From positions 54,886 through 118,885 of IMG/VR virus record IMGVR_UViG_2906626472_000001: a DNA stretch of 64,000 nucleotides, one strand, 5' to 3'. The translations under genes and the position numbers were made by a program. The notes beneath the pieces were generated by a model. The model did no database searches, was not told where the DNA came from, and was given only the letters and a program-made list of their open reading frames with translations. The stretch comes from a virus. Taxonomy: Duplodnaviria; Caudoviricetes. This document shows, one piece after another, positions 7,664 to 36,236 of the stretch (positions within the stretch are counted from its first letter, which is position 1; every line of letters begins with the position of its first letter).

Positions 7664-7771
7664 AATTCAAGCCGCAAGGCGCACGCTCCCCCGCGTACCG
7701 ACGACTGGTCACTCCGTCGCGTGAAGAAATCGGAGAGGGGGATCAACACACACGCCATTGAAAATTCATGC

Positions 7772-7845
7772 ATCGGGGTCCTCCGGCGTAGGCGGCCGGT
7801 CTCCAAAACTGCGCTGCGAGAGTTCGAGTCTCTCCCCCGGTGCCA
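7772..7845 (+). tRNA. tRNA-Trp (CCA), atypical D arm
   Basis: Anticodon loop CTCCAAA, T arm GAGAG-TTCGAGT-CTCTC, acceptor ATCGGGG/CCCCGGT, GCCA end; D arm lacks canonical residues. Confidence 0.75.
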
Positions 7846-7865
7846 ATAAAAAAACAAGAAGAGCC

Positions 7866-10376
7866 ATGGCCACGAACAACTCATCGGAAGTGCAGGATGC
7901 GACTGTCAGCGACACGTCGGCGTCCAATCCGGCGACTGCCGGAACGTCGCGCTACCGCGTCATCGCCCCGCACGGAATCCACCTCGGGCTCGATTTCTTC
8001 GGCGTAAATTCGATCATCAATCTGACGGCAGGCGGCGCCAAATATCTGCTCCTGAACAGCCAGATTGCGCTCGCATCCGAGCAGGCCCCTGTGGGCGTGC
8101 CGGATGGTCCAAGCGAAGACGACGTCAAGATCGATATCTACGTCAACAGTGCGGCGAAGACCGTTTCGCTCACGAAGCTCCGGGAGATGTTCCCGAACAT
8201 CCAGGGTCCTGCTGGCGATCCCGGTCTGCCGGGACCACGCGGCGCCCGTGGTGAGAAGGGCGACAAGGGCAGCGACGGTCACAGCATCTACCTGAAGGGC
8301 GTTGTCTGGAGCGTGGACCTTCTCCCGGCGGGCGCGAGCCAGGGCGACGTTTATCTTGTGCAAACCACGAGCCATTGGTGGGCGTGGCTGGACTCCAGCT
8401 GGGTCGACCTGGGCTCGTTCAGGGGAGAGCAAGGCCCGCAAGGTCTGCGCGGACCTGAGGGCGAGCGCGGAGAAAAGGGCGAGCGAGGTCCACTCGGCGC
8501 AGTCGATCCCGCCGACATGCTGACGATCGCAAACAATGTTCTGTCGGCGCAAGCCTACGCCGATTCTGCTCATACGTCTGAGACGAATGCGGCTTCGTTC
8601 AAGAATGGCGCGGCAAGCTCGGCGACGGCGGCGGCTACGTCCGCGACGAATGCCAGCGACAGCGCAGCAGCGTCTGCCGGATCGGCATCCGCCTCGGCCA
8701 TGAGTGCCTCGGCAGCTAGTTTGAGCGAGACCAATGCTGCCGTCAGCGCATCAAATGCGGCAACCAGCGAAGTCAATGCTGCGGCTTCTGCCGCCGCGGC
8801 TGCGTCGTCCAAAGGCGATGTAGAAACCGCACTGGCGGAAATGACCACCCTGGCTGCGGATGCGTCAACGAGCGCCTCCAACGCTCATACCTCGGAGACG
8901 AACGCGGCTGCGTCAAAGAGCGCTGCTGCTGCTTCGGCTTCGGCGGCGGCTACGTCCGAGACCAATGCGAGCGCGAGCGCGACGGCTGCCGCTGGATCGG
9001 CATCATCCGCATCCGACAGCGCCGCATCGGCTCTGGGAAGCAAGAACGCAGCCAGCACCAGCGCATCGAATGCGGCCACCAGCGAAAGCAACGCAGCTGC
9101 TTCCGCCGCGGCGGCGGCTGCATCAGCGGGCGCGATGACGCCTGCCTCGGCCTTGCCGCTCGTGGATGGCGCGGCCGACGTTGGTACGTCAGCGAAATAC
9201 GCGAGGGAGGATCACAGGCACGGCACGGATACCACTCGTGCTCCTGTTGCGTCGCCGTCCTTCACCGGAAATGTCAGTATTGAGGCGGGCAGCTATCTCA
9301 GCTTCGGTGCAACACCCGGCACCAGCGGCTACGGCATCCGCGACAATGCGGGTGTCATCGAGACCAAGAGTTCCGGCGCAGCCTGGTCGCCGGTCGCTAC
9401 CACCGCCTACGTCTCTTCGGCTGTGGCGAACATCGTCAACTCGGCTCCGAGCACGCTCGATACTCTGAACGAGCTGGCTTCGGCTCTCGGCAACGATGCG
9501 AACTTCTCGACCACGGTTTCGGCCGCCCTGGGCAACCGCCTCCGGGTCGACACCAACGCGCAGGGCCTGGATGCCACCCAGCAGAGCAATGGCCGGACCA
9601 ATCTCGGCCTCGGCAACGCCGCGACCCAGAACGTCGGCACGACCGCCGGCACCGTCGCTGCGGGTAACGACTCTCGTTTCACGGCTGGCGCCTTCACGAC
9701 GCTGACGGTCGGTGGCAACGCCGTCTGGCACACCGGCAACTTCGCTCCTGGCAACTACATGCCGCTCGGTGGCGGGACGATGACCGGTGTGATGTATGGC
9801 GCCACGCTCAATTTGGCCATGGTGGCGGGCGACGGCAGCTCACTTGGTAGCTTCGTTTGCCGAGCCGCCGGTACCGGCGATGGCGGTCTGGCCGGCTTGA
9901 CCTTCTACAACAACGCTTATGCCATCAAGCTTGGCATTCGTTCGGACGGCTACTTCGGCCTGGGAGGTTGGTCGCGAGCAGCTTGGTCCTGGTACTCGGC
10001 GTCAGACGGCTCGATGGTCGCAGCCGGCAACATCTCGGCGTACTCGGATCCAGATCTGAAGGACGATGTGAGCGTCATTTCTGATGCGCTCGACATCATC
10101 AGCAAGCTCGATGGTGTCCGGTTCACCTGGAACCACAAGACGAAGCTGATTGGCCGTCCTGGAGAGCGCGACGTTGGTGTCCTGGCCGACCAGGTCGAGG
10201 CGGTCCTGCCCGAACTCGTTGGTCTTTCGATTCCCGATGACGACAACGATGGCAAGCAGTGGCGCGTGGTCGCCTACGACAAGCTCGTGCCCGTCCTCAT
10301 CGAAGGCATCAAGGCGCAGCAGGCGAAGATCGACGGGCTCCTGAGCTGGGCGCGATCCAACGGCTTCGACGGATAA
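7866..10376 (+). CDS. tail/side fibre protein with collagen-like and Ala/Ser-rich repeats and a C-terminal peptidase S74 chaperone domain
   Basis: GxY triplets, Stf-like TSETNAAAS repeats, APSTLDTLNELASALGND motif, SDPDLK...GVRFTW...GVLADQVEAVLPELV...VAYDKL; start moved to ATG 7866 because the upstream part overlaps tRNA-Trp. Confidence 0.88.
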   Translation: MATNNSSEVQDATVSDTSASNPATAGTSRYRVIAPHGIHLGLDFFGVNSIINLTAGGAKYLLLNSQIALASEQAPVGVPDGPSEDDVKIDIYVNSAAKTVSLTKLREMFPNIQGPAGDPGLPGPRGARGEKGDKGSDGHSIYLKGVVWSVDLLPAGASQGDVYLVQTTSHWWAWLDSSWVDLGSFRGEQGPQGLRGPEGERGEKGERGPLGAVDPADMLTIANNVLSAQAYADSAHTSETNAASFKNGAASSATAAATSATNASDSAAASAGSASASAMSASAASLSETNAAVSASNAATSEVNAAASAAAAASSKGDVETALAEMTTLAADASTSASNAHTSETNAAASKSAAAASASAAATSETNASASATAAAGSASSASDSAASALGSKNAASTSASNAATSESNAAASAAAAAASAGAMTPASALPLVDGAADVGTSAKYAREDHRHGTDTTRAPVASPSFTGNVSIEAGSYLSFGATPGTSGYGIRDNAGVIETKSSGAAWSPVATTAYVSSAVANIVNSAPSTLDTLNELASALGNDANFSTTVSAALGNRLRVDTNAQGLDATQQSNGRTNLGLGNAATQNVGTTAGTVAAGNDSRFTAGAFTTLTVGGNAVWHTGNFAPGNYMPLGGGTMTGVMYGATLNLAMVAGDGSSLGSFVCRAAGTGDGGLAGLTFYNNAYAIKLGIRSDGYFGLGGWSRAAWSWYSASDGSMVAAGNISAYSDPDLKDDVSVISDALDIISKLDGVRFTWNHKTKLIGRPGERDVGVLADQVEAVLPELVGLSIPDDDNDGKQWRVVAYDKLVPVLIEGIKAQQAKIDGLLSWARSNGFDG
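8560..9130 (+). repeat. Ala/Ser-rich coding repeats (AxTSETNAAAS-like)
   Basis: Degenerate repeats at protein level within the fibre; approximate bounds. Confidence 0.75.
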
Positions 10377-26223: not shown

Positions 26224-26240
26224 GAATTTTGGGAACACCA

Positions 26241-28496
26241 GTGGAAAACAAAATCATCTTCCATGCGAACATCGATGATGATCCGACCGACTTCACGCGG
26301 TTGCAGGATTTCGCCGAAGCTTCGCTCGACCACGTCGTCCTCGACGGCATCAGCAGCCTGACCAAGTACGTCGGCTTCGGCGTCACGAAGTCGGCTGTGA
26401 CGCAGATCTCTGTCGCGACTGGCCGTCTCTATTCGGCCGGCAAGGTCTACTCCTCGGCGGACAACGCCTGGAGCAAGGACTTCATCACGCAGCTGCCGGT
26501 CGCCGGCAAGCGCATCGCTTCGGTCGTGACCTGGGGGCAGGAGTCGGACACCGACATCCGTCCGCGCCAGTTCCTGATCAACGCTGAGACGCGCCAGGCT
26601 GAGCCGCAGGCCGTTCCGCTGGTTCACTCCCGCGTCGCGAGCCTCAACGTCGTGCTCGGTGCCGAGGCTCCGGACCCGACCGCGCCGCTGGTGGACGCCG
26701 GCTACACGGTCATCGCCAACGTCGTCCTGACGCCGACCGGCGTCGACACGATCACGATGGTCACCGACAACCAGCTGCCGAGCGTGCAGGCGCACGAGCA
26801 GCGAATCGACGACCTCGAAGTCTTCGAGGAGACCGCCGGTCTCCAGATCAAGACGCTCGCTTCCGACATCGCGGCCCTCAAGGCTGCCGGCTCGAAAGGC
26901 GACGTCGATCAGGCCACCATGGGCCGCACGCTGGTTCGTCTGGCCGTGCTCGAGTCCAAGAACGGCGTGGTCTACAACGCGATCGACTCGGACGCGAACT
27001 TCTTCCTCGACACCACGAAGTCGCAGCTGGATGACCCGCTATCGCATGTGAAGGTGGAAGAGGGCATCCGTATGCCGCACGCCGCCGAAGGCGCCGCGGC
27101 CCTCCAGATCTTCAACCCGCTTGATCCGAGCGCGACGATCAAGAACGGCATCATGTTCCCCGCCTACACGCGGGAAGCCTGGCTCCAGTCCGGCAACATC
27201 AGCGGTGAGCTGCAAGTCGCGGCTTACTCGGTCCAGTCGTTCGACATGGTCCAGAAGATGATGTCGAAGACCCGCATCCGATACGGCGACGAGTTCTACG
27301 TCTGCACGAACAGCTTGTTCTGGCAGACCGGACAGTACAACGGCGCCGGCCTGTTCTTCCGCGACGGGGCGACCTACGAGGTCGAGAACCCGCAGGACAC
27401 GCCGTACCACGCCTTCATCCGCCTGCGTCAGATCTGGATCGACCGCTGGGATGAGCCGTACTGGGAAAAGGTGACGACCACCACCACGGTGACCGGCACC
27501 CAGATCGCCGAGACCTGGCTCCAGGGCCAGAACATGTGGCTCGATGCCGTTGGCGTCTGGTTCACCCGTCTCGCGGCCTCCGGCTCGGCTCACTTCGCCA
27601 TCGTCGAGGTCTCCGACTACGGTCTGCCGAACCTCAAGGCGTGTATCGCTCAGACCACGGTGCTCCGCGAGAACCTCGTTCTCCAAGGAGAGACCAAGGT
27701 CTCGTTCCAGCCGACCTTCCTCCAGGCCGGTAAGCGCTACGCGGTCGTCGTGACCACGGCAGCCGACCACTGGGTCGCCACGGTCCCGGGTCAGCAGTTC
27801 ACGTCCGGCACGTTCTTCTACGTGCTCGATGGCGCCTACGCCCAGGGCGATGCGTTCAAGGATCTGTGGATGCGGCTCTACCGCTGCAAGTTCAACCAGG
27901 CCCGTGCGGTCATCACGTTGAACCCCCTGCAGCTGGCCGGCGGCATTCTCGCGATCGACCTGCTCACCGGCACGGTCGTCCCGGACGGCACCTCGCTCAC
28001 GTACGAGATCCAGGTCGGTTCGACTTGGTACAACTTCCTCGACGTGGACAAGTACATGCTCGGCCAGGGCGGCACGATCCCGCCGCTGCTCCCGCTGCGA
28101 GCCGTCTTCATGGGCTCCGTCGACTGCATGCCGTGCATCAACCTGGCTGACAGCTCGGTCTACGTGTCCCGCCCGGATGTCTATGCGCAGCACGTCTCCA
28201 AGACGCGCACGCTGCCGGCGGCCTCGACCTCGATCCGAGTCATCGAGCGCTACGAATACTTCGATCCGGCCTACCACACGGCAAGCTGCAAGCTTCTGAC
28301 CGGTGCGGGCTTCACGACGCAAGTATCTCCGTCCTCGGTCTCCACCTGGATCGATCCGGACGATGGCGCTTACGAGAAGACCTACGTCTTCAACCTCGGC
28401 GCAGCGATCACGCAGTTCAGGAAGCTGACCCGTCTCGACACCTCGACCAACCAGCGTGTGTTCCACGTCGGTTGGCAAAAGGACTACGCCGTCTAA
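26241..28496 (+). CDS. large baseplate/tail-fibre attachment protein
   Basis: 751-aa beta-rich ORF between gpI and the tail fibre; GTG start. Confidence 0.7.
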   Translation: MENKIIFHANIDDDPTDFTRLQDFAEASLDHVVLDGISSLTKYVGFGVTKSAVTQISVATGRLYSAGKVYSSADNAWSKDFITQLPVAGKRIASVVTWGQESDTDIRPRQFLINAETRQAEPQAVPLVHSRVASLNVVLGAEAPDPTAPLVDAGYTVIANVVLTPTGVDTITMVTDNQLPSVQAHEQRIDDLEVFEETAGLQIKTLASDIAALKAAGSKGDVDQATMGRTLVRLAVLESKNGVVYNAIDSDANFFLDTTKSQLDDPLSHVKVEEGIRMPHAAEGAAALQIFNPLDPSATIKNGIMFPAYTREAWLQSGNISGELQVAAYSVQSFDMVQKMMSKTRIRYGDEFYVCTNSLFWQTGQYNGAGLFFRDGATYEVENPQDTPYHAFIRLRQIWIDRWDEPYWEKVTTTTTVTGTQIAETWLQGQNMWLDAVGVWFTRLAASGSAHFAIVEVSDYGLPNLKACIAQTTVLRENLVLQGETKVSFQPTFLQAGKRYAVVVTTAADHWVATVPGQQFTSGTFFYVLDGAYAQGDAFKDLWMRLYRCKFNQARAVITLNPLQLAGGILAIDLLTGTVVPDGTSLTYEIQVGSTWYNFLDVDKYMLGQGGTIPPLLPLRAVFMGSVDCMPCINLADSSVYVSRPDVYAQHVSKTRTLPAASTSIRVIERYEYFDPAYHTASCKLLTGAGFTTQVSPSSVSTWIDPDDGAYEKTYVFNLGAAITQFRKLTRLDTSTNQRVFHVGWQKDYAV

Positions 28497-28517: not shown

Positions 28518-28724
28518 ATGACCGACAACACGAACGCGGCCACCCCCGAGGTGGTCGCGAGCGAACCCGCGCCGGCTCCCGTCTACTACGACGTGAAGCT
28601 GAACGCCCGGTTCACGCTGCAAGACTTCAATTACCTGCCGAGGGACCATCACATCGTGGACAAGACGGTCTACGACGCGATGGAAGCCGCGGGGGTGGTT
28701 GCCGATGTCAAGCAACTTTCCTGA
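28518..28724 (+). CDS. small tail-region protein
   Basis: AAAGGA RBS; 68 aa. Confidence 0.65.
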   Translation: MTDNTNAATPEVVASEPAPAPVYYDVKLNARFTLQDFNYLPRDHHIVDKTVYDAMEAAGVVADVKQLS

Positions 28725-30387
28725 GCTTGTATTCAGCGAGGATGAAGACTTCACGGCTGATCGTTTGAACTCGGCGATGGAGGTGCTCGATAAGCGCCTC
28801 CGCGCCCTGGAGCCCTTCACGCCTTCTTGGCAGCAGGCAGTCAACGATCTGCGTGACGTCGGTCTCTCTCGTTTGAACGACGCCATACTGCCGGCGTATC
28901 AGCGCATCCAGCTGCTGTCCACGCTCGGCTTCCTCTTCGCTGGTTCGTCCAGCGAAGTCACTCTCACCAACGACATGACTGCGACGTTCATCATCGACGG
29001 TGAAACGCAGAAGTCTCTATTCACGCCTACGCCATTCCTGGCGCTGACGCGCTCCTCGACGGTCGATGACTGGGCTATCGCCCAGCTGATCTCCTACGAG
29101 GCTGCGACCGGCACCTTGATGGTGAAGGTCAAGGCGATCACCGGCAACGCCGGCCCGCACACTGATTGGCAGATCGGCGCATGCGCGGGTAATACCGCCG
29201 CTGCGATGGCGTATTTCGCCCAGATCGATGCGGCCCGCAACCAGTCGAACGTTGCCAAGGCGGCGACCGCAGCTGATCGCGTGCAGACCGGACTTGACCG
29301 GGTCCAGACTGGGCTCGACGTTACGGCTGCAAACATTGCCAAGGAACAGGCGCAGGCGGCTGCCTCGGGTGCAGGCACCTGGGATCCGACGAACTACGCG
29401 CTGAAGACCTACGTCGACAACGCCATCGCCAACCTGATCGGGGCAGCTCCGTCCACATTGGACACGCTGCAGGAGATTGCGCAGCGGTTCGTCACGGACG
29501 AGAACGCGCTCAACTCTCTGACCACCACGGTTTCTGGAAAGCTCCAGAAGTCGATGAACCTCAGCGACTTGACGGATACGGTTGCTGCAAAGGCAAACCT
29601 TGGCATCTCGTTCGCCAATCCGACATCGAAGTCGGGCCTTGCTGCCGTGGCCGGATCGGCCGTCACCTACATGCGCTCGGATGCTGCTCCGGCAATCGAT
29701 GTCTCGATTTCGCCGACCTGGACGGGAAAGCACATCTACCAGTATTCGTCTGGACTGAGCTACGTCCATCAGACGAGCACCTGGGGTGGGCTCTCGGTCT
29801 ACGCTCCCGACCAAGGAACCGCCTTCATCAGCTATCATCGCGGCGTTTATGCGGTGAACGCTGGTCTCGACGGCGACAACTGGTGGCGCATCGGCGGTTG
29901 GTCTGATGGCGCTGCCTGGCGCTTCGGCGTCAGCCCGGCTGGTCTGATGCAGTCCGCAGGCTACGGCGCAAACACCACGCCAGTGGCAAGCCAGGTTCGA
30001 GCCGCAGGCGACATCATCTACGGCGTCTCCGATGTGCGTCTGAAGAAGGACATCGAGACGATCGAGAACGCTCTGGAGAAGATCCGGCAGCTGCGAGGCG
30101 TCACCTGGGATCAGAGCGATCTGGCCAAGGAGCTGAAGGCGCCTGATCAGCCCCGCCGCAAGGCAGGTCTGCTGGCTCAGGATCTGCAGAAGGTTCTGCC
30201 TGAAGCGGTCGGCCTCGCGCCGTTTGACACCGACAAGTTCGGTAGGAGCAAGTCGGGGCTCGACCTCCTGAACATCTACTACGAGCAGCTCTCCGGCCTC
30301 TTGGTCGAGGCTGTCAAGGAGTTGGCGGACAGGAATGATGCGCTCGAAGCGCGCCTGGCCAAGCTCGAAGCAAAACTGGGGGTCTAA
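28705..30387 (+). CDS. tail fibre with C-terminal peptidase S74 intramolecular chaperone
   Basis: APSTLDTLQEIA, NLSDL, YHRGVYAVNAGLDGDN..RIGGWS tip motif, SDVRLKKDI...GLLAQDLQKVLPEAV...LVEAVKEL. Confidence 0.92.
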   Translation: MSSNFPELVFSEDEDFTADRLNSAMEVLDKRLRALEPFTPSWQQAVNDLRDVGLSRLNDAILPAYQRIQLLSTLGFLFAGSSSEVTLTNDMTATFIIDGETQKSLFTPTPFLALTRSSTVDDWAIAQLISYEAATGTLMVKVKAITGNAGPHTDWQIGACAGNTAAAMAYFAQIDAARNQSNVAKAATAADRVQTGLDRVQTGLDVTAANIAKEQAQAAASGAGTWDPTNYALKTYVDNAIANLIGAAPSTLDTLQEIAQRFVTDENALNSLTTTVSGKLQKSMNLSDLTDTVAAKANLGISFANPTSKSGLAAVAGSAVTYMRSDAAPAIDVSISPTWTGKHIYQYSSGLSYVHQTSTWGGLSVYAPDQGTAFISYHRGVYAVNAGLDGDNWWRIGGWSDGAAWRFGVSPAGLMQSAGYGANTTPVASQVRAAGDIIYGVSDVRLKKDIETIENALEKIRQLRGVTWDQSDLAKELKAPDQPRRKAGLLAQDLQKVLPEAVGLAPFDTDKFGRSKSGLDLLNIYYEQLSGLLVEAVKELADRNDALEARLAKLEAKLGV

Positions 30388-30390
30388 GAA

Positions 30391-30624
30391 ATGGCCGTTC
30401 CATCATCAGGAGCGGTCGCTTTCTCGACCGTCAACTCTGTCTTCGGCTACGGCGGCGCGATGAGCAGCTACGTCGGCAAGTATTACTACTGGTACGATCC
30501 AAACTGGGGTGTGCGCTCCGCCCAATTCCCCGGCTCGAACTTCCCGATGACGATGTTCTACGGCACGTCGGGCCACGACGAATGGAATTGTGCCTGCGAC
30601 TGCAACTGCGCCTGCGGCAAATAA
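30391..30624 (+). CDS. Cys-rich-tailed small protein A (putative fibre-tip protein / RiPP-like precursor)
   Basis: 77 aa, starts 3 nt after the fibre stop; ends FYGTSGHDEWNCACDCNCACGK; paralog adjacent. Confidence 0.85.
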   Translation: MAVPSSGAVAFSTVNSVFGYGGAMSSYVGKYYYWYDPNWGVRSAQFPGSNFPMTMFYGTSGHDEWNCACDCNCACGK

Positions 30625-30636
30625 CGGAGGTCACTG

Positions 30637-30855
30637 ATGGCTATTGCTACCTCAGGCAGCATCGCAATGTCGACGGTCCAATCAGTTTTCGCCCGAGGCT
30701 ACTCCATTAGCGGATATCGCGGGACGCAATACTACACGTCGGCGGGATTGGGAACTTTCCCGACTGGAGGCTTCCCATTCTCGGCGTTCTACGGGACGTC
30801 ACCCAATAATGAGTGGGCTTGCGCCTGCGACTGTAACTGCAACTGCGGCAAATGA
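30637..30855 (+). CDS. Cys-rich-tailed small protein B (paralog of A)
   Basis: 72 aa, GGAGG RBS; ends FYGTSPNNEWACACDCNCNCGK. Confidence 0.85.
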   Translation: MAIATSGSIAMSTVQSVFARGYSISGYRGTQYYTSAGLGTFPTGGFPFSAFYGTSPNNEWACACDCNCNCGK

Positions 30856-30861
30856 GGACAC

Positions 30862-31173
30862 ATGGAAAAGAAATTCAGCTTCAAAGTGAAGGACTGGAGC
30901 GCTGACGGCTCAGCGCGAGTGGAATACATCCACGGCACGCTCGGCACCATCACCAAGTCCGTCTTCATTCCGCTGAACTTCTCCGAGGAGGAGCAGCGCA
31001 GCGCGATCGCGATGCAGTTCCCGTCGACCATGTTCCACTCACGGTGGCTTGGTTATCTGCAACGCGAGGCACCTCTTCCGGCACCCGCCGCCATGGAAGG
31101 GGAGTTCACGTTCAGCCTCGATCGGCCGGATGACAATCTGGTCGAGCAGGCGCACGAGATCGAAAAGGTCTGA
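30862..31173 (+). CDS. hypothetical protein in the modification cluster
   Basis: GAGGA RBS, 103 aa, coupled to the next gene. Confidence 0.7.
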   Translation: MEKKFSFKVKDWSADGSARVEYIHGTLGTITKSVFIPLNFSEEEQRSAIAMQFPSTMFHSRWLGYLQREAPLPAPAAMEGEFTFSLDRPDDNLVEQAHEIEKV

Positions 31174-31715
31174 TGCGCCGCAAGCGTATGCGGTTCGGAA
31201 GTTTTATGGTCACGCTCTTCACCTGCTACGCGGGTGAGGAGCGGATCATTCCTCCTGGCGAACTGAACCGGGGCATCACTGAAGCCCCGATCGATGATCT
31301 CATCGAGATCAACAAGAATGCCAAGCCGCTAAACCCCATCACGGTCTTCACCAAGGGATCGTTCGAGATGGATCTCGGCTGGGACAAACCATTCCCTATC
31401 AAGGCGGGTGAGGGTGGATACAGAGGCGCTTTTGCGGAGCGTCTGGACAACATTCGGCTACGTGCAGTCGAAGACGGCAGCGAATATCACTGCATTCTTC
31501 CGCTCGATCGAACGGCTCGATACTGGGACAGGCGCCCAGTGAGCTGTGACGAGGGTCAAGCGATCGAGCTTTCCGCCGGCCAGTTTCTATACATCGCGAC
31601 GGGCGCGATCGAGATTGGCGGCAAGACCTTCACCGGTCCTGCCATGGTGGAGTCATCCAAGGACCAGACTGCAATGGCCACAGAGCGTGTGATCGGTGCA
31701 AAGATATGGATCTGA
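31173..31715 (+). CDS. hypothetical beta-rich (cupin-like) protein
   Basis: TGATG coupling; FLYIATGAIEIGGKTF and VFTKGSFEM strands suggest a double-stranded beta-helix. Confidence 0.6.
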   Translation: MRRKRMRFGSFMVTLFTCYAGEERIIPPGELNRGITEAPIDDLIEINKNAKPLNPITVFTKGSFEMDLGWDKPFPIKAGEGGYRGAFAERLDNIRLRAVEDGSEYHCILPLDRTARYWDRRPVSCDEGQAIELSAGQFLYIATGAIEIGGKTFTGPAMVESSKDQTAMATERVIGAKIWI

Positions 31716-32437
31716 GTTTCAAACCCAAACACTACCTCCCGGTCCTGTACACGGGATTGGCCGCCGTTGTGCTCGGCGCAATTCTCGTGCTGATCGGCGT
31801 GGTTTGGTGGCCGTGGCTGCTCCTGACCTGGAGCGTCTACTGCTTCCTGGCTATCACCAATTCGGCCGGTCACCACCGGCTATTCTGTCATGGCTCATAC
31901 GAGACATCGACATTCTGGGAAGTGTTCCTGATCCTGACGGGGACGCTGTCCTGCTATAGCTCGTCGCTGCAATACTGCGTGACCCACAGCTGGCACCACA
32001 AATACGCGGACACCGATGGTGATCCCCATCACTTCGAGTCGTTCTGGGACGTTTTCCGTGAGAGCTATCGCATGGAGAACGCCCCGCTCAGCAGCCGGAA
32101 GGCAATGGCCAGACTCCTGAAGCGTCCGGGCCATGCCTTCTTCCATCGCTACTTCTGGGCTTTCCCGGCCCTGATGGTGGTGATCCTGGCCCTCATCGGC
32201 TGGAAGGTGCTCCTGTTTGGATATGTGGCTCCGGTGGGCATCATCCTGTTCTCGGCAGCGATGTTCAACTTCCTGTCCCACGACGACGACGGTCCGAACA
32301 ACAAAACAATCGCGCTGTTCGTCTCTGGCGAGGGTAGGCACAAGCTCCATCACGAGAACCCGCACCTTTGGGATTTGCGGCAGAGGTGGTGGCACATCGA
32401 TCCGAGCGCCTGGCTCATCTCGCTCATCAAGAGGTAA
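31706..32437 (+). CDS. membrane fatty-acid desaturase family protein
   Basis: Three His boxes GHHRLFCH, HSWHH..D...DPH, GEGRHKLHH, plus TM helices and a C-terminal IDP motif. Confidence 0.9.
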   Translation: MDLSFKPKHYLPVLYTGLAAVVLGAILVLIGVVWWPWLLLTWSVYCFLAITNSAGHHRLFCHGSYETSTFWEVFLILTGTLSCYSSSLQYCVTHSWHHKYADTDGDPHHFESFWDVFRESYRMENAPLSSRKAMARLLKRPGHAFFHRYFWAFPALMVVILALIGWKVLLFGYVAPVGIILFSAAMFNFLSHDDDGPNNKTIALFVSGEGRHKLHHENPHLWDLRQRWWHIDPSAWLISLIKR

Positions 32438-32439
32438 CA

Positions 32440-33069
32440 ATGCCGACGATCCGCTTTCTGACGCCTGCGGACTATCCAGACATGTGCGATATCCTGGACA
32501 AGCACACCAGCGGTCCAGGCGCCTATGCCAATGACCGCACCGCCGCTCCGTCAGCGGATTTTAACTGGCATGCGAAGTGGTACATCGACACGCTCTTCGA
32601 GGCGGCGATGACCAACTTCTTCGGCTACTTCGATGACGAGGGGCGACTCGCGGCGTTCGTTTGCTTCATCCGGTGGGTTAACGACACCGATATCTCCATC
32701 AACATCAAGGTGGAAGACCCGACCATCGATCTCCCTCGTGCGGAGGGGGCTCGCTGGTCGGATGTCACCATCGACCTGATCAACTGGGGTGTCGGCTACT
32801 TCTACTCAGAAGGCGTGACGACGTTCTGGACGCTGATGATGAGTGGGCAAGAGGCCGCAAGCTTCGCCGCCCATGAGAACTGCATCCTCAACCAGTACGG
32901 CAAGGAAAAAGTCCTGTCGCTTCCGGCCGGCGAGTTGCCGCCGGAGCAATATCGGCGTGTGCAGTGGATGCCGATTTTTCAGGACTCGGAGATCTACAAA
33001 TACACCGATCCGCTGCCGCTGTCTGAATACCTGAAAGTAGAGAATGATCCGACTGGACTTGCTGGATAG
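32440..33069 (+). CDS. putative GNAT-fold acyltransferase
   Basis: IRFLTPADY..., FGYFDDEGRLAAFV, LINWGVGYFYSEGVTTFW resemble GNAT topology; GAGG RBS. Confidence 0.5.
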   Translation: MPTIRFLTPADYPDMCDILDKHTSGPGAYANDRTAAPSADFNWHAKWYIDTLFEAAMTNFFGYFDDEGRLAAFVCFIRWVNDTDISINIKVEDPTIDLPRAEGARWSDVTIDLINWGVGYFYSEGVTTFWTLMMSGQEAASFAAHENCILNQYGKEKVLSLPAGELPPEQYRRVQWMPIFQDSEIYKYTDPLPLSEYLKVENDPTGLAG

Positions 33070-34342
33070 GGACGGGGAGGTCGTGCCCCTGTTCTATGAT
33101 CAGCACACGTCACGACTGATGGACCAAAACGGCTGGCGAGCCATCGACTTCACGGGGCACCAGCTACTCGAGTCCGCGCCGACAGAGCGCCGCAAGTTCA
33201 TTGCGGTCGACTACGACCAGCCGGGCAAGAAGGTCCGCGAGGTCACCAAGCTGAAGATCCAGCTCGGCCTCGGCTGCAACTATTCCTGCGCCTACTGCCT
33301 TCAGGCGGCGCAGATCCACAAGGCCGCAGCGTCATCGACGCGCGATGCCAGCGAGTTCCTCTCGAACATCGACAACTGGATCGGCGCTCCCGAGGGCATG
33401 GAGAAGGTCGAGCTGTGGGGCGGCGAGCCGCTGCTCTACTGGAAGAAGATCGAGGTTCTCGCGCCCGCGCTGAAGGAGAAGTTCCCGAACGCCCGCTTCT
33501 CGATCATCACCAACGGATCGCTCCTGACCCGTGAGATCGTCGATCAGCTGAAGGCGTGGGACTTCTCGGTCTCGATCAGCCACGACGGTCCGGGCCAGCA
33601 CATCCGCGGCGATGACCCGTTCGAGGATCCACACAAGTTCGCCTTCATCCAGTATGCATTCAAGCAGCTGCATCCACGCTTCTCGTTCAACTCGGTCCTG
33701 ACGCCGGCAAGCCACGACGTCAGCGCCATCATCGACTGGTTCCAGGACTACTTCCCGGGATGCAATGTCGCGTTCGAGGGCGTGGTTCACAGTTACGCCG
33801 CGGACGCTTCGTCGATCTTCACGATCGAGCAGCTGGAGCAGTTCAGCGACATGCTGTCGCGCCAGCTCGTCGACGGAAGCGCGTTGCGTTCGCCGGCAAT
33901 GGCAGACAAGCTCCGCAGGGCGATGACCTCGCTCGTGAACGAGCGCTCGTCTGATACCTTGTTCCAGAAGTGCGGGATGGACACGCCGGAATACCTGGCC
34001 GTCGATCTCAAGGGCAACGTCATGACCTGCCAGAACGTGGGTGCCAACGGCAACCACAAGATCGGGCATGTGGACGACTTCGAGAGCATCGCGCTCAACA
34101 CCTCGCGCCACTGGAGCAAACGCGCCGAATGTCAGAGCTGCCCCGTGCTGCAGCTTTGCCAGGGTGCCTGCATGTACCAGGGCGGTGACAACTGGACGCA
34201 CAGCTGCAACGCCGAGTTCTATTACAACCTAGCCTTTCTCCGCGTGGCCCTCTACGGGCTGACCGGTCGATGGCTGACTGGGTTCTCTGGCGACATCGTC
34301 AGGCCGACCCTGAAAAAGGATCGACATGTCCAAGTTCGTTAA
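33044..34342 (+). CDS. radical SAM enzyme with SPASM domain (putative peptide maturase)
   Basis: CNYSCAYC, WGGEPLL, ITNG, SISHDG; SPASM C..G...C...CQSCPVLQLCQGAC...C. Confidence 0.95.
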   Translation: MIRLDLLDRDGEVVPLFYDQHTSRLMDQNGWRAIDFTGHQLLESAPTERRKFIAVDYDQPGKKVREVTKLKIQLGLGCNYSCAYCLQAAQIHKAAASSTRDASEFLSNIDNWIGAPEGMEKVELWGGEPLLYWKKIEVLAPALKEKFPNARFSIITNGSLLTREIVDQLKAWDFSVSISHDGPGQHIRGDDPFEDPHKFAFIQYAFKQLHPRFSFNSVLTPASHDVSAIIDWFQDYFPGCNVAFEGVVHSYAADASSIFTIEQLEQFSDMLSRQLVDGSALRSPAMADKLRRAMTSLVNERSSDTLFQKCGMDTPEYLAVDLKGNVMTCQNVGANGNHKIGHVDDFESIALNTSRHWSKRAECQSCPVLQLCQGACMYQGGDNWTHSCNAEFYYNLAFLRVALYGLTGRWLTGFSGDIVRPTLKKDRHVQVR

Positions 34343-35063
34343 GCTGGCAGCCCAGCTGGACAAGATCCCGCACCTGAAGCTGGGGCCAGAGTTCTTCGTG
34401 CCCCTGCTCCAGGCCGAGCTGGCTGCGATCGACGCGGCGCTCTTCGTGCCGTATCGATCCAAGAGTCACAACACGGCGCACATCGCCAAGTCCTGGCACG
34501 GCCTGTCCCTAATCTCTCCGGGCGGAACGGTTCACGGCGACCTCACCGAGGAGCCTTATGCCGGCCGCACGGACTGCGCATGGACGCCGATCGCAGAGGC
34601 CAGCCCCTACATCAAGCACGTCATCAGTGAGCTTGGCGGCGAGGGCCAGCGGGCTCGGTTCATGTGCATGCGGGCAGGCGGGAGCCTCACCTGGCACCGG
34701 CACGGCACCGAGATTTCGATCGAGCAGGGCAACATCATGGGCCAGCTCAGGCCCAACTGGTACGAGGTCATCGTCCACGTCCCGGTGCGATCGAACCCGG
34801 AATACAGCTACGAGGTCATCGCCGCTCACGAGTACGAGCTGGGCGACTTCTTCGCTGCCGGCATGAAGATCCACTCGCAGAACTATCCGGAGGGAGAGGC
34901 GTGGGCCTTCAACGGCACCCACTACCACAACGTCTTCAACCGCTCGGCCACACAGGATCGCTACTCGATCATGCTGACAGCGGACATCCGGATGAAGAAG
35001 ACCTTCGACATCGTGTCGAAAGCCATTGAGGCCTATGACGGGCCGCTGATCGAGAGGTCCTGA
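34326..35063 (+). CDS. AspH-like Fe(II) oxygenase, copy 1
   Basis: W.GLSL, WT.IAE..PYI, RARFM.M.AG..L.WHRH, HVPV.SNP, GEAWAFN..HYHNVFN....RY. Confidence 0.8.
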   Translation: MSKFVKLAAQLDKIPHLKLGPEFFVPLLQAELAAIDAALFVPYRSKSHNTAHIAKSWHGLSLISPGGTVHGDLTEEPYAGRTDCAWTPIAEASPYIKHVISELGGEGQRARFMCMRAGGSLTWHRHGTEISIEQGNIMGQLRPNWYEVIVHVPVRSNPEYSYEVIAAHEYELGDFFAAGMKIHSQNYPEGEAWAFNGTHYHNVFNRSATQDRYSIMLTADIRMKKTFDIVSKAIEAYDGPLIERS

Positions 35064-35812
35064 TGTCAAAGTTCGTAGAGCTGGCCAGGAAACTGGACAG
35101 CATCCCGCATCTCGACCTCGGCCGAAGCTTTGAGGTGGAGAGGCTTCAAGCGGAGCTGGACTCAATCGACTCAGCATTGTTCGTGCCGTACCGCACGGTG
35201 AGCAGATACAAGCAGCTCATCGCGAACAACTGGCAAGGCCTGTCGATGGTGGCGCCACACGGCTCCATCCATGACGATCTGACGGAGGAGTTCAACGGGC
35301 CTCCGCTCGACGCTACCTGGACGTCGGTTGCCGAGCAGTGCCCTTACATGAAGCAGGTGATCACCGAGCTTGGCGGCGAGGGCCAGCGCGTGCGCTTGAT
35401 GCGAGTGATGCCCGAAGGTCGCCTGACATGGCACCGTCACGGCAACGAGACTTCGGTCGAGAACGGCAAGATCCTCGGCGGCCTTCGTCCCAACTGGCAC
35501 GAGCTGATCGTCCACGTCCCTGTCAGGACGAACCCGGAGTTCAGTTACGAAGTCATCGAAGTTCCTTCATATCAATTGATCGACTTCATGACCGAGCCGC
35601 TGGCGATCCACCGCAAGAACTACCCGGCCGGCGAGGCCTGGGGTTTCAACTCGGTCCACGTCCACAACGTGTTCAACCGCTCCAAGACCGAACCGCGATA
35701 CGCTCTGATGCTGAGCCTCGACATCAGGATGAAGAAGACCTTCGACATCGTCTCCAAGGCGGTCGAGCGCTACATCGCGAACGGCGAGGGGCCTTTAATG
35801 CCAGGGCTCTGA
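35063..35812 (+). CDS. AspH-like Fe(II) oxygenase, copy 2 (tandem paralog)
   Basis: Colinear with copy 1 over the full length (MSKFV.LA..LD.IPHL, WHRHG.E, LRPNW.E.IVHVPVR.NPE, DIRMKKTFDIVSKA). Confidence 0.8.
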   Translation: MSKFVELARKLDSIPHLDLGRSFEVERLQAELDSIDSALFVPYRTVSRYKQLIANNWQGLSMVAPHGSIHDDLTEEFNGPPLDATWTSVAEQCPYMKQVITELGGEGQRVRLMRVMPEGRLTWHRHGNETSVENGKILGGLRPNWHELIVHVPVRTNPEFSYEVIEVPSYQLIDFMTEPLAIHRKNYPAGEAWGFNSVHVHNVFNRSKTEPRYALMLSLDIRMKKTFDIVSKAVERYIANGEGPLMPGL

Positions 35813-35813
35813 A

Positions 35814-36236
35814 ATGCAAACCATTCTGTCTTCGAAGCCCCCTGTCGTTCTCGAAGACGACTTCAATGTTGCCACCAACGAAGACTGGGTTCGTGAGTGG
35901 CAGCTCAAGAATGATGACGAAATCGTCCCGCTCGACACGTCCTGGAAACTGTACTCGCAGCTCCAGAGACAGAACACGGGCGACATCGCCGTCATGCTCT
36001 CAACCGACAACGGTCGACTCGTCGTCACCGATCGGCAAGCCGGCAAATTCGGCCTCAGGCTGAAGCAGGCTGACGCCAATCAGTGTCCGCCCGGGACGTA
36101 CCTGTATGACATCGTCCTCGTTGCTGGCGATGGCATCTACCGCTTGGTCACAGGGACGATCATCGTCCAGCAGGGGATCACCAACGTCCCCGGCCAGGAG
36201 ACGTGGAAGCATGTTCCGCTGATCCTCAGACCATAA
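35814..36236 (+). CDS. BppU-N-like tail/baseplate protein
   Basis: GTYLYDIVL....RLVTGTIIV..GIT motif. Confidence 0.65.
   Translation: MQTILSSKPPVVLEDDFNVATNEDWVREWQLKNDDEIVPLDTSWKLYSQLQRQNTGDIAVMLSTDNGRLVVTDRQAGKFGLRLKQADANQCPPGTYLYDIVLVAGDGIYRLVTGTIIVQQGITNVPGQETWKHVPLILRP

Follow-up and report, generated by a model that had tools for sequence, protein, structure and literature searches.

What are two mini-proteins, A and B, that each end in a run of alternating cysteines doing between a phage tail fibre gene and the gene of a radical SAM/SPASM enzyme (rSAM)? The two lie in a Bradyrhizobium myovirus-like prophage, which we analysed as a 64,000-nt stretch of IMG/VR record IMGVR_UViG_2906626472_000001 (positions 54,886 to 118,885; hereafter the window). 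The two ORFs of the initial annotation are confirmed, position and plus strand included, with the S74 fibre on their 5′ side and the rSAM on their 3′ side (Table 1). A starts 4 nt past the fibre stop codon, a Shine–Dalgarno-like site precedes both genes (GGAGG, 7 nt ahead of the ATG of B), and the rSAM start lies 2,420 nt downstream of A and 2,189 nt downstream of B.

The module is placed between the baseplate genes and the sheath, within the structural operon, and the order of fibre, mini-protein, three small genes, rSAM and hydroxylase is kept in all nine related loci (L003–L009, L011 and L012), in each of which the mini-protein gene directly follows the fibre. In the window, that fibre matches several tail-fibre PHROGs and is predicted to end, once mature, at ..GDIIYGVS (residue 444), just ahead of DVRLKKDIE. 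The related loci have a single mini-protein and a single hydroxylase; in the window, the duplication of A and B accompanies a duplicated hydroxylase, the copies of which share 60% identity and fall just under the PF05118 gathering cutoff of 22.6 bits. A profile search of the PDB with the hydroxylase-like protein was empty, its AF2 model is poor (pLDDT 45), and hhalign found no relation to the PF13759-like oxygenases of other clades.

Table 1. Genes of the module and its borders, in window coordinates
Feature	Position	Strand	Evidence or remark
Tail fibre, C-terminal S74 intramolecular chaperone	28699..30387	+	PF13884 at residues 444-504, E 1.7e-16
Mini-protein A, 77 aa	30391..30624	+	N-domain 1-60, hypervariable hairpin 34-45, tail DEWNCACDCNCACGK
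Mini-protein B, 72 aa, paralogue of A	30637..30855	+	tail NEWACACDCNCNCGK
103-aa protein (o103)	30862..31173	+	present in related loci; Bradyrhizobium-phage clade only
180-aa clade-specific protein (o180)	31173..31715	+	cupin-like fold, lead only
243-aa membrane protein with His boxes	31706..32437	+	weak DesA desaturase/hydroxylase likeness
209-aa protein (o233), GNAT-like (lead only)	32440..33069	+	ORF open from 32368; overlaps rSAM start
Radical SAM/SPASM maturase, phrog_1802	33044..34342	+	PF04055 E 7.7e-13; phrog_1802 E 6.8e-59
Asp/Asn beta-hydroxylase-like 1 (borderline)	34326..35063	+	PF05118 E 2.6e-4, 21.3 bits
Asp/Asn beta-hydroxylase-like 2 (borderline)	35063..35812	+	PF05118 E 1.7e-4, 21.9 bits
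140-aa protein, last of module	35814..36236	+	conserved in related loci
Tail sheath gene	from 36303		follows the module; phrog_23 E 9.5e-99

The small genes in between give leads only. The structural neighbours of o180 in the Atlas are pirin, HutD and KduI cupins (TM 0.58–0.69), and those of the 209-aa protein by Atlas features are N-acetyltransferase-like (score 0.95); Pfam searches with the two were without match. The 209-aa protein is conserved in the related loci, with homology beginning at Met 32440. No match to o103 was returned by Pfam, NCBIfam or PHROG, and the 243-aa membrane protein reaches E 0.003 with NF049918, far under the cutoff of that model; its gene is present only in L010 (the contig of the window), L013 and L062, and is missing from the single-copy related loci. 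No counterparts of o103, o180, o233 or the hydroxylase were detectable outside the Bradyrhizobium-phage clade, o180 and o233 show no relation to the widespread A7 family, and a distant DNA search with the cluster returned two 70-nt matches only.

A and B share 51% identity (BLASTP, E 3e-15). The motifs MA..(S/T)SG....STV.SVF, FP...FP...FYGTS and EW.CACDCNC.CGK are present in both, as the initial annotation had read them, and so are five cysteines that alternate with Ala, Asp or Asn behind a conserved Trp. A has 24 homologues (57–85% identity) and B has four (70–86%), two of the latter on contigs equal in length to contigs with A-type proteins. A profile of the N-domain, run against 1.84 billion representative proteins, gives 111 matches with E ≤ 1e-3, and tblastn with A against a phage collection gave no match. 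Across seven orthologues, dN/dS is 0.19 for residues 1–33, 0.34 for residues 34–45 (a middle region in which dS is close to saturation), 0.17 for residues 46–62 and 0.06 for the tail, residues 63–77; A and B are thus under purifying selection, strongest on the Cys tail. Within the whole window, a Cys motif near the C-terminus is found in A and B only, and this confinement, the homologues, the profile matches and the dN/dS values together argue that the two are not chance ORFs. The window also has an antisense ORF of 59 residues with an internal CSCAC.

The bipartite layout proposed at the outset holds for a domain followed by a Cys tail, but not for the N-terminal motif and FP..FYG as separate modules across a linker. 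Profile positions 1–60 match as one unit, N-terminal in many longer proteins, so that both motifs belong to a single domain, and the diverging middle is a β-hairpin inside it (AF2 model). The true bipartition of A and B is a domain of about 60 residues plus a Cys tail of 13–15 residues.

What might the N-domain do? In the relatives examined it always starts at residues 1–3 of its protein, and its 111 matches lie mostly at the N-termini of proteins of 150–535 residues. Some of these longer proteins carry the Gly-rich domain PF21722, or match the gp38 family phrog_2056, as do 4 of the 19 long relatives tested; a Gly-rich domain of gp38 type is present in some long relatives. Among 34 assessable relatives elsewhere, which were drawn by a degenerate DNA pattern that takes in only those with G-x-I-S-x-S-x-I-N-x-E-F-G, 15 are encoded directly after an S74 fibre gene, and for the other 19 the preceding gene is not recognised by the S74 model used. 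Burkholderia phage JC1 gp60 is likewise placed after a tail fibre gene.

This setting recalls gp38 of the S16/T2-type T-even phages (PF05268, phrog_2056, PDB 6F45), a small monomeric protein whose gene, too, immediately follows that of the distal fibre. When the model of A was compared with 48,161 PDB chains (VIA wide), the sole chain at Z ≥ 2 was 6f45_D, through residues 2–46 of S16 gp38, which form its N-terminal helical attachment domain; the match is weak (Z 3.1, rmsd 2.2, 45 residues). The published account describes gp38 as docking via three helices with an aromatic apex on each (PMC6851490). The model of A has three short helices, ending at F18-G, Y27-x-G and F56-Y-G.

Other comparisons did not bring out this likeness. 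Foldseek found no match of the A model in the PDB at E ≤ 0.001, and in BFVD only weak ones (E 0.27–3); profile searches with A1 and P0055 against PDB sequences gave chance-level rows only. A and B match neither PF05268 (E ≤ 0.1) nor phrog_2056, with which S16 gp38, as a positive reference, scores 2.7e-91, and in a profile check of the kind suggested for the N-domain hhalign gave no signal, placing the family and S16 gp38 together with a probability under 1%. A gp38-like fibre dock is therefore moderately supported: the position after an S74 fibre and the weak structural match argue for it, and the empty Pfam, PHROG, Foldseek and hhalign comparisons against. Furthermore, A and B differ from gp38 in that they lack its polyglycine (PGII) receptor-binding domain and end instead in the Cys tail; to our knowledge, gp38 has neither such a tail nor a radical SAM partner. 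The initial suggestion of one cap per fibre finds no support in gene position, as A and B both follow the second fibre of the window and nothing similar follows the first.

The tail can be followed well beyond the window. We gathered 89 rSAM loci, which fall into 26 clades at 70% identity, 23 of them with enough flanking DNA. A same-strand neighbour with an alternating (Cys-x)n motif is found in 20 of these 23 assessable clades: 12 have a same-strand ORF ending in at least two Cys-x units and a further Cys within 8 residues of the stop codon, in 3 the motif abuts the first Cys of a Hint domain (as in JWF gp028, where Hom_end_hint begins at residue 308), and in 5 it is internal, in L065 directly before an S74 chaperone. 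The mature C-terminus of the fibre-like proteins, where the motif lies, is determined by a stop codon, an S74 chaperone or a Hint domain. In the remaining three clades no neighbour is clearly a motif protein: L051 and L063 lack one, and RSP15 offers no more than ..NCQCGN. As a shuffle control, the C-terminal motif occurs in 70 of 1,404 ORFs where 0.24 would be expected, and 200 within-ORF shuffles never gave more than 2.

The association also holds in the opposite direction. Among 65 viral loci selected solely by a CNCNCNC-stop DNA pattern, the pattern closes a frame of at least 80 residues in 48; the rSAM is present in 41 of these, 7 have less than 2 kb of downstream sequence, and none with sufficient sequence is without it (41 of 41 assessable loci). 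Where the frame is short, the rSAM is found in none of 17. We considered whether the Cys run is a low-complexity artefact of the DNA, and rejected this on the low dN/dS of the tail and the 17 short-frame occurrences without an rSAM.

The carriers of the motif are fibres, recognised by collagen repeats (L049, L024), S74 domains or fibre PHROGs, and in other phages it terminates collagen-repeat fibres of 330–620 residues or comes to light when a Hint or S74 domain cleaves itself off. An N-domain plus Cys-rich tail recurs beside distant rSAMs (L056, L062, L065, L073, L096, L100, L105, L128 and L135). We define the module as at least three alternating cysteines no more than 8 residues from the mature C-terminus, with a same-strand phrog_1802 rSAM within about 6 kb. 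A and B belong to it, each ending two residues beyond the motif, and in their system the putative substrate motif is co-inherited with the enzyme. A search of the full-text literature, with subscription journals outside its scope, returned no description of such a module, and an earlier account elsewhere is possible. The proposal that the Cys tail is the modified core of the rSAM is strongly supported by this two-way association, which is one of comparative genomics; it is on the same association across 26 enzyme clades that we infer an enzyme–substrate pairing.

Could the tail instead be a metal site only, binding Zn, Fe, Cu or an Fe–S cluster at the fibre tip without covalent modification, while the rSAM serves another purpose? 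Alternating residues of a β-strand would turn all cysteines to the same side, a geometry favourable to chelation, above all around a three-fold axis, and many motif carriers are trimeric fibres. There is precedent for alternating metal- or link-forming residues at the distal end of trimeric fibres, in the His-x-His iron sites of the T4 gp37 needle and the C-terminal cystine knots of collagen. These need no dedicated enzyme, however, whereas here a radical enzyme accompanies the motif. Metal binding needs no such enzyme either and leaves the pairing unexplained in both search directions, and we regard a metal-only tail as unlikely. Metal binding and modification of the tail by the rSAM are not mutually exclusive.

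The enzyme itself gives a direction for the chemistry. It matches the SPASM model TIGR04085 (E 4.2e-10) and has an invariant CX3CX2C (C78, C82 and C85) and seven SPASM cysteines (C310, C329, C363, C366, C372, C376 and C388). The nearest curated NCBIfam families are PapB (NF047865; best match, 4e-23, 82.1 bits against a cutoff of 340) and QhpD (TIGR03906; 4e-20, 71.9 against 453, third best), both thioether formers, together with CcpM (TIGR04068; 1e-17, 64.3 against 500). As it lies far below every NCBIfam cutoff, we assign it no reaction type. The nearest solved structures include 5wgg, which we take to be CteB, and the anaerobic sulfatase maturase 4k37 (E 2.7e-10).

In PapA/PapB (freyrasin), NxxcA/NxxcB and SCIFF/CteB, of the ranthipeptides and sactipeptides, a SPASM rSAM likewise lies beside a Cys-rich substrate, and β-thioethers from Cys to Asp or Asn are known products of such systems. 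The motif of A and B differs in being a strictly alternating C-x-C-x-C at the C-terminus of fibre-type proteins, unlike the CX3D or NxxC repeats that those secreted peptides carry, and the cluster in the window is without a protease or exporter. Moreover, the orthologous tails CACACACAC of L003 have no Asp or Asn amid the cysteines, so that a PapB-style Cys–Asp link cannot be the general rule. QhpD cross-links Cys to Asp or Glu in a small subunit that is kept in a larger complex and not exported; QhpC/QhpD share a SPASM rSAM with our system, but belong to a cellular redox enzyme, quinohemoprotein amine dehydrogenase, and have different motifs. In CLI_3235/CcpM (TIGR04065/TIGR04068), a Cys-rich C-terminal core accompanies a SPASM rSAM; this bacteriocin locus of clostridia and Paenibacillus also includes a protease and a transporter (PMC10731318).

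Such parallels raise the prospect that A and B give rise to a free RiPP, such as a bacteriocin or metal chelator carried as a prophage moron, with the N-terminal part as a leader to be removed and the Cys tail as the exported core. The layout resembles leader plus core beside an rSAM nearest to RiPP maturases, many genes of the cluster encode candidate tailoring enzymes, and the tail from one related locus (L036) has a faint likeness to the Cys-rich CLI_3235 bacteriocin precursor TIGR04065 (E 0.035), which A and B themselves do not match. Yet the 10 proteins encoded from 28699 to 35812 gave no match to a protease, transporter or exporter in Pfam, NCBIfam or PHROGs, the cluster lies within the tail module, and the putative leader is a folded domain common to the longer adhesin-like proteins. 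A RiPP core is usually the variable part, whereas in A and B it is the most conserved, and elsewhere the same motif ends long collagen-repeat fibres or is exposed by self-cleavage. A free RiPP thus seems to us quite improbable.

A further alternative keeps the rSAM acting on the tail but changes the chemistry, to an anaerobic-sulfatase-maturase-like conversion of Cys to formylglycine or to Cys–Cys or inter-chain staples of trimeric fibres, and makes A and B assembly factors or chaperones rather than caps. The sulfatase maturase is among both the nearest structures and the NCBIfam matches (4.3e-13), tails of Cys and Ala alone exist, and genes behind fibre genes, where A and B stand, often encode assembly chaperones. 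However, the thioether-forming families outscore the sulfatase maturase, the fibre has an S74 chaperone of its own, and a hypervariable hairpin together with a strongly constrained tail is more in keeping with a part of the virion surface than with a helper that acts in passing. We give this alternative little credence.

On balance, we lean towards A and B as fibre-tip caps, small accessory proteins of the tail fibre, the Cys tails of which would be cross-linked by the rSAM. The first 60 or so residues may be a monomeric docking domain. The family to which it belongs is large and unnamed, stands at the head of many adhesin-like proteins of phages, and is typically encoded right behind a fibre whose S74 chaperone cleaves itself off; if S16/T2 gp38 is a guide, the dock would seat A and B on the tip bared by that cleavage. 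The last 13–15 residues, ..DEW(N/A)CACDCNC(A/N)CGK, would be the substrate motif of the SPASM enzyme encoded 2.2–2.4 kb downstream, the likeliest chemistry being radical thioether links from Cys sulfurs to carbons of neighbouring residues. The AspH-like oxygenases could hydroxylate Asp or Asn, perhaps N66 or D63. This would yield a compact distal knob with a covalent knot, which forms in the reducing cytoplasm and stays cross-linked without reliance on disulfides, and the hypervariable hairpin beside it could tune receptor contact.

We extend this to other phages only tentatively, as a possibility that we hold with some doubt: a portable Cys-Asn/Ala tip cassette may occur in many of them, made into a thioether knot by the rSAM, often with a 2OG oxygenase, of which A and B would be the minimal, detachable, gp38-like form, consisting of dock and knot only.

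What radical SAM/SPASM enzymes are known to make is secreted peptide natural products, along with a few enzyme cofactors. In our data, one rSAM family is tied, from both search directions and in very different phages, to the C-termini of fibres or caps that touch the host, and the module, as judged from its genomic associations, points to enzymatic modification of phage fibre tips. Were the association to reflect the modification we propose, it would account for the radical SAM, '2OG-Fe(II) oxygenase' and 'sulfatase maturase' annotations that have long stood beside fibre genes, Achromobacter phage JWF and Ralstonia phage RSP15 being two examples. A substrate of 72–77 residues and a single enzyme make a simple test system. 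If the tails are cross-linked, radical chemistry would build stable tips in the reducing cytoplasm, where disulfides are unreliable. If true, RiPP-type enzymes would gain a new class of substrate, and the tip would be the first receptor-binding structure of a virion to be cross-linked by an enzyme. Receptor-binding proteins would then also have a post-translational layer, one that is at present disregarded in structure prediction and in host-range models.

Mini-proteins A and B, which are 51% identical (E = 3e-15, pairwise comparison) and share the C-terminus EW(N/A)CACDCNC(A/N)CGK, both follow the second tail fibre gene of the window, with A beginning four bases after the fibre stop. On the same strand, these are followed by a 103-aa and a 180-aa ORF, a 243-aa His-box membrane protein and a 209-aa protein, and then by a radical SAM/SPASM enzyme (rSAM), two paralogous Asp/Asn β-hydroxylase-like proteins, a 140-aa ORF and the tail sheath. 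As terminase, portal, baseplate, sheath and hub genes all lie within the window, whose sequence is the same as that of a Bradyrhizobium hipponense contig, it represents a myovirus-like prophage or phage. Just 5′ of the fibre, related loci keep a 755-aa phrog_17470 protein with no assigned function, at 82–97% identity in the close ones. The membrane protein has a weak likeness to DesA desaturases/hydroxylases, and its gene lies beside the rSAM in the window and in L013 and L062, one a close locus and one distant with an rSAM 39% identical, and is absent from single-copy Bradyrhizobium loci.

Positions of the features discussed, in window coordinates or, where an L handle is given, in those of loci retrieved by our searches
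Feature	Position	Strand	Details
First tail fibre	7758..10376
phrog_17470 protein	26229..28496		755 aa; E 7.5e-172
Second tail fibre	28699..30387	+	562 aa; C-terminal Peptidase_S74 intramolecular chaperone, PF13884 at 444-504, E 1.7e-16
Mini-protein A	30391..30624	+	77 aa
Mini-protein B	30637..30855	+	72 aa
DesA-like membrane protein	31706..32437	+	243 aa; three His boxes, HHRLFCH, HSWHH, HKLHH
Radical SAM/SPASM enzyme	33044..34342	+	PF04055 E 7.7e-13; phrog_1802 E 6.8e-59
Two paralogous Asp/Asn β-hydroxylase-like proteins	34326..35812	+	PF05118 21.3 and 21.9 bits vs cutoff 22.6
A7 family members	L002:5281-6096, L046:6530-7297, L049:6985-7947, L075:5109-5936, others
Tandem (C-N)n-tailed paralogues	L046:5663-6518, L052:3792-4727, L058:5649-6529, L067, L071, L085:1548-3725		three or four per array
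Extreme Cys tail	L021:6830-7087		85 aa

The motifs that the initial annotation had picked out in A and B go beyond chance resemblance, as seen in their homologues (24 of A at 57–85% identity, four of B at 70–86%), in the 111 proteins that a family profile matched (E ≤ 1e-3) in a set of 1.84 billion representatives, and in the constraint on the tail. In seven orthologues, residues 1–33 have a dN/dS of 0.19, residues 34–45, where dS is near saturation, one of 0.34, residues 46–62 one of 0.17 and the tail one of 0.06, making the tail the most constrained part; in the alignment, the middle segment is variable in length as well as in sequence. Most of the 111 matches are longer proteins of 150–535 aa that align profile positions 1–60 at their own N-terminus, so that the N motif and the FP..FYG motif form one domain of about 60 aa (consensus M-x-L-P-x-S-G-x-x-S-x-S-x-I-N-x-E-F-G ... 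Y-R-G ... F-P ... F-Y-G). The proposed bipartite layout is thus upheld for the separate Cys tail and revised for these two motifs. An AlphaFold2 model (128 sequences) has a pLDDT of 80–84 over the N-domain, with three short helices (11–18, 24–27 and 53–56) and a hairpin (31–45) whose tip is the hypervariable part, and of only 50–66 over the tail, which is therefore a short extension attached to the folded N-domain.

Cys tails accompany related rSAMs well beyond the window. Homologues 37–41% identical lie beside fibre genes in Achromobacter phages JWF and 2-1 and in Ralstonia phage RSP15, whose side tail fibre ends in NTNCQCGN; in the fibre-like gp028 of JWF, ..KPRQNCNCDCNCNCSC runs directly into a Hint domain (Hom_end_hint at 308–344), the last Cys of the motif being Hint position 1. 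A profile scan of viral contigs found 101 rSAM relatives and returned 78 distinct loci which, with earlier ones, gave 89 loci in 26 rSAM clades at 70% identity, three of them with hardly any DNA upstream. The counts for the remaining 23 come from redundant locus collections and depend on a simple regular expression and on ORFs that we called ourselves. In 12 of these clades, between one and four same-strand ORFs have at least three alternating Cys ending within eight residues of the stop (for example CNCNCRC, CNCNCNC, CNCNCACNC, CACNC and CACACNCGG), in three the motif directly adjoins a Hint domain (JWF, L024 twice and L053), five have it internally, directly before an S74 chaperone in L065, and three lack it (RSP15, with only a two-Cys form, and L051 and L063, with none). 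Among the proteins that bear the motif are fibres of 330–420 aa and others, of about 600 aa, with collagen repeats. Hint and S74 domains are known as families that self-cleave at such points, and the motif is thus predicted to reach the mature C-terminus by one of three routes: the stop codon, Hint self-cleavage or S74 self-cleavage.

This association holds in both directions. The C-terminal motif occurs in 70 of 1,404 non-overlapping same-strand ORFs of the rSAM loci, compared with 0.24 expected (maximum 2) from 200 within-ORF shuffles. Conversely, searching with a DNA pattern that encodes CNCNCNC followed by a stop gave 65 viral loci, in 48 of which the pattern closes a frame of 80 aa or more; 41 of these carry a same-strand rSAM, downstream in 40 and 3.2 kb upstream in one (L128), and the remaining seven have less than 2 kb of downstream DNA, so that no assessable locus lacks the enzyme. 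None of the 17 loci in which the pattern sits in a short frame has an rSAM; such frames, of 36 aa (L101, L109 and L119) or 21 aa (L106, L124 and L138), served as negative controls and may be genuine small genes or a second frame of a repeat. The full combination of N-domain and Cys-rich tail also lies beside rSAMs 37–39% identical to that of the window (L056, L062, L065, L073, L096, L100, L105, L128 and L135). Six loci carry tandem paralogues of about 90–196 aa, each (C-N)n-tailed and upstream of one rSAM, with fibre-like N-termini such as ..LSQFTNDLGNY, which suggest sets of interchangeable fibre tips. An extreme tail, CACVCACCCCCACCCNC, in which 12 of the final 17 residues are Cys, belongs to a protein next to an rSAM 44% identical to that of the window.

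The window rSAM has a CX3CX2C motif (C78, C82 and C85) and all seven SPASM cysteines, invariant in five sequences down to 37% identity. Its best curated matches, all far under their cutoffs, are PapB (4e-23), a nif11 maturase, QhpD (4e-20), geopeptide and CcpM, compared with 4e-13 for anSME. Among solved structures, the closest chains are 8vpo_A, anSME 4k37 and 5wgg. On these resemblances, thioether formation would be the best guess for the reaction, if a tentative one. Orthologous tails in L003 contain only Cys and Ala, which argues against an obligatory Cys–Asp/Asn link within the run; N66 and D63, nearly invariant in the alignment just before it, could be an acceptor or hydroxylation site. 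A PF13759/phrog_81-type 2OG-Fe(II) oxygenase flanks the rSAM in 10 of the 26 clades and is replaced in the window's clade by the PF05118-like proteins; as we detected no relation between the two types, it seems that oxygenase partners joined the module on more than one occasion. The hydroxylase and the 103-, 180- and 209-aa proteins are confined to the Bradyrhizobium-phage clade, and the cupin-like and GNAT-like character of the latter two is a lead only. In 13 of the 26 clades, the gene directly after the Cys-tail gene encodes a 240–340-aa family (A7), whose conserved C-terminal ~90 residues (..YLES..GYLPK.RV...G.G.F...ALGL..GD...VK.G..) look Ig-like by eye. This family matches nothing in Pfam or the PDB, is unrelated to the 180- and 209-aa proteins and may be a third core partner.

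Nine related loci have a single mini-protein and a single hydroxylase, and the window has two of each, together with the DesA-like gene. The duplication that gave A and B coincides with that of the hydroxylases (60% identical), which hints that each substrate variant has an oxygenase of its own. B-type proteins occur beyond the window, two of them on contigs of 1,172,679 and 6,815 nt that match in length contigs with A-type proteins, so that the pair probably recurs elsewhere. Nothing resembling A or B follows the first fibre in the window. Of the two arrangements initially considered, that of alternative caps sharing one fibre, to which we would add a separate hydroxylase for each cap, would suit the gene positions better than that of one cap per fibre.

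How the putative caps might attach is suggested by the N-domain, which for A and B matches no family in Pfam, NCBIfam or PHROG. Some long relatives continue it with the Gly-rich PF21722 (P0062 and P0092, with P0087 just below the cutoff), and 4 of 19 scanned match phrog_2056, confirmed as the S16 gp38 adhesin family by the score of S16 gp38 itself (2.7e-91). In Burkholderia phage JC1, the relative gp60 starts two bases after the tail fibre gene. With a degenerate DNA pattern that covers the N motif we recovered 41 viral loci, a sample biased to one motif variant and including near-duplicates, in which 40 ORFs match the N-domain HMM, always from residue 1–3; six lie at contig edges, and 15 of the other 34 directly follow a gene recognised by the S74 model (19 do not). 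A marine-looking group of 190–380 aa starting MTLTSSGQISISDINGEFGRSG.. (L158, L159, L165, L166, L176, L187 and others) has the first N-domain helix directly after S74 fibre genes, in some cases overlapping the fibre stop by 4 nt, and no Cys tail in any member.

A Foldseek search of the A model against the PDB gave no match at E ≤ 0.001. In an exhaustive VIA search, the sole chain with Z of at least 2 among 48,161 was 6f45_D, residues 2–46 of S16 gp38 (Z 3.1, r.m.s.d. 2.2 Å over 45 residues, 20% identity; weak by VIA's own standards), a segment that is the attachment domain, as initially predicted. According to the authors of PMC6851490, the gp38 monomer docks on the gp37 trimer through three helices, each with a conserved aromatic residue. 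In the A family, F18-G, Y27-x-G29 and F56 are near-invariant at the ends of the three model helices, a possible parallel to this dock. The proposed gp38-type dock is thus favoured by gene position and the weak 6f45_D match, but a profile comparison with S16 gp38 alone (hhalign) gave no signal and A and B match neither model of the gp38 family (PF05268, phrog_2056). The structural link to gp38 is weak, and we consider it plausible, with a slight lean in favour, that the N-domain works like the gp38 dock.

In gene position, and possibly in its dock, the window system resembles gp38; with this it combines an rSAM/SPASM enzyme of RiPP type and a putative substrate rich in Cys. Membership tests placed it in none of gp38, PapB, QhpD or CcpM. 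Our search of the full-text literature, with most subscription journals and supplements outside its scope, turned up no description of fibre tails with alternating Cys or of the rSAM that partners them. Judged on its sequences, we rate this module as a putative case of radical SAM maturation applied to the fibre tips of virions.
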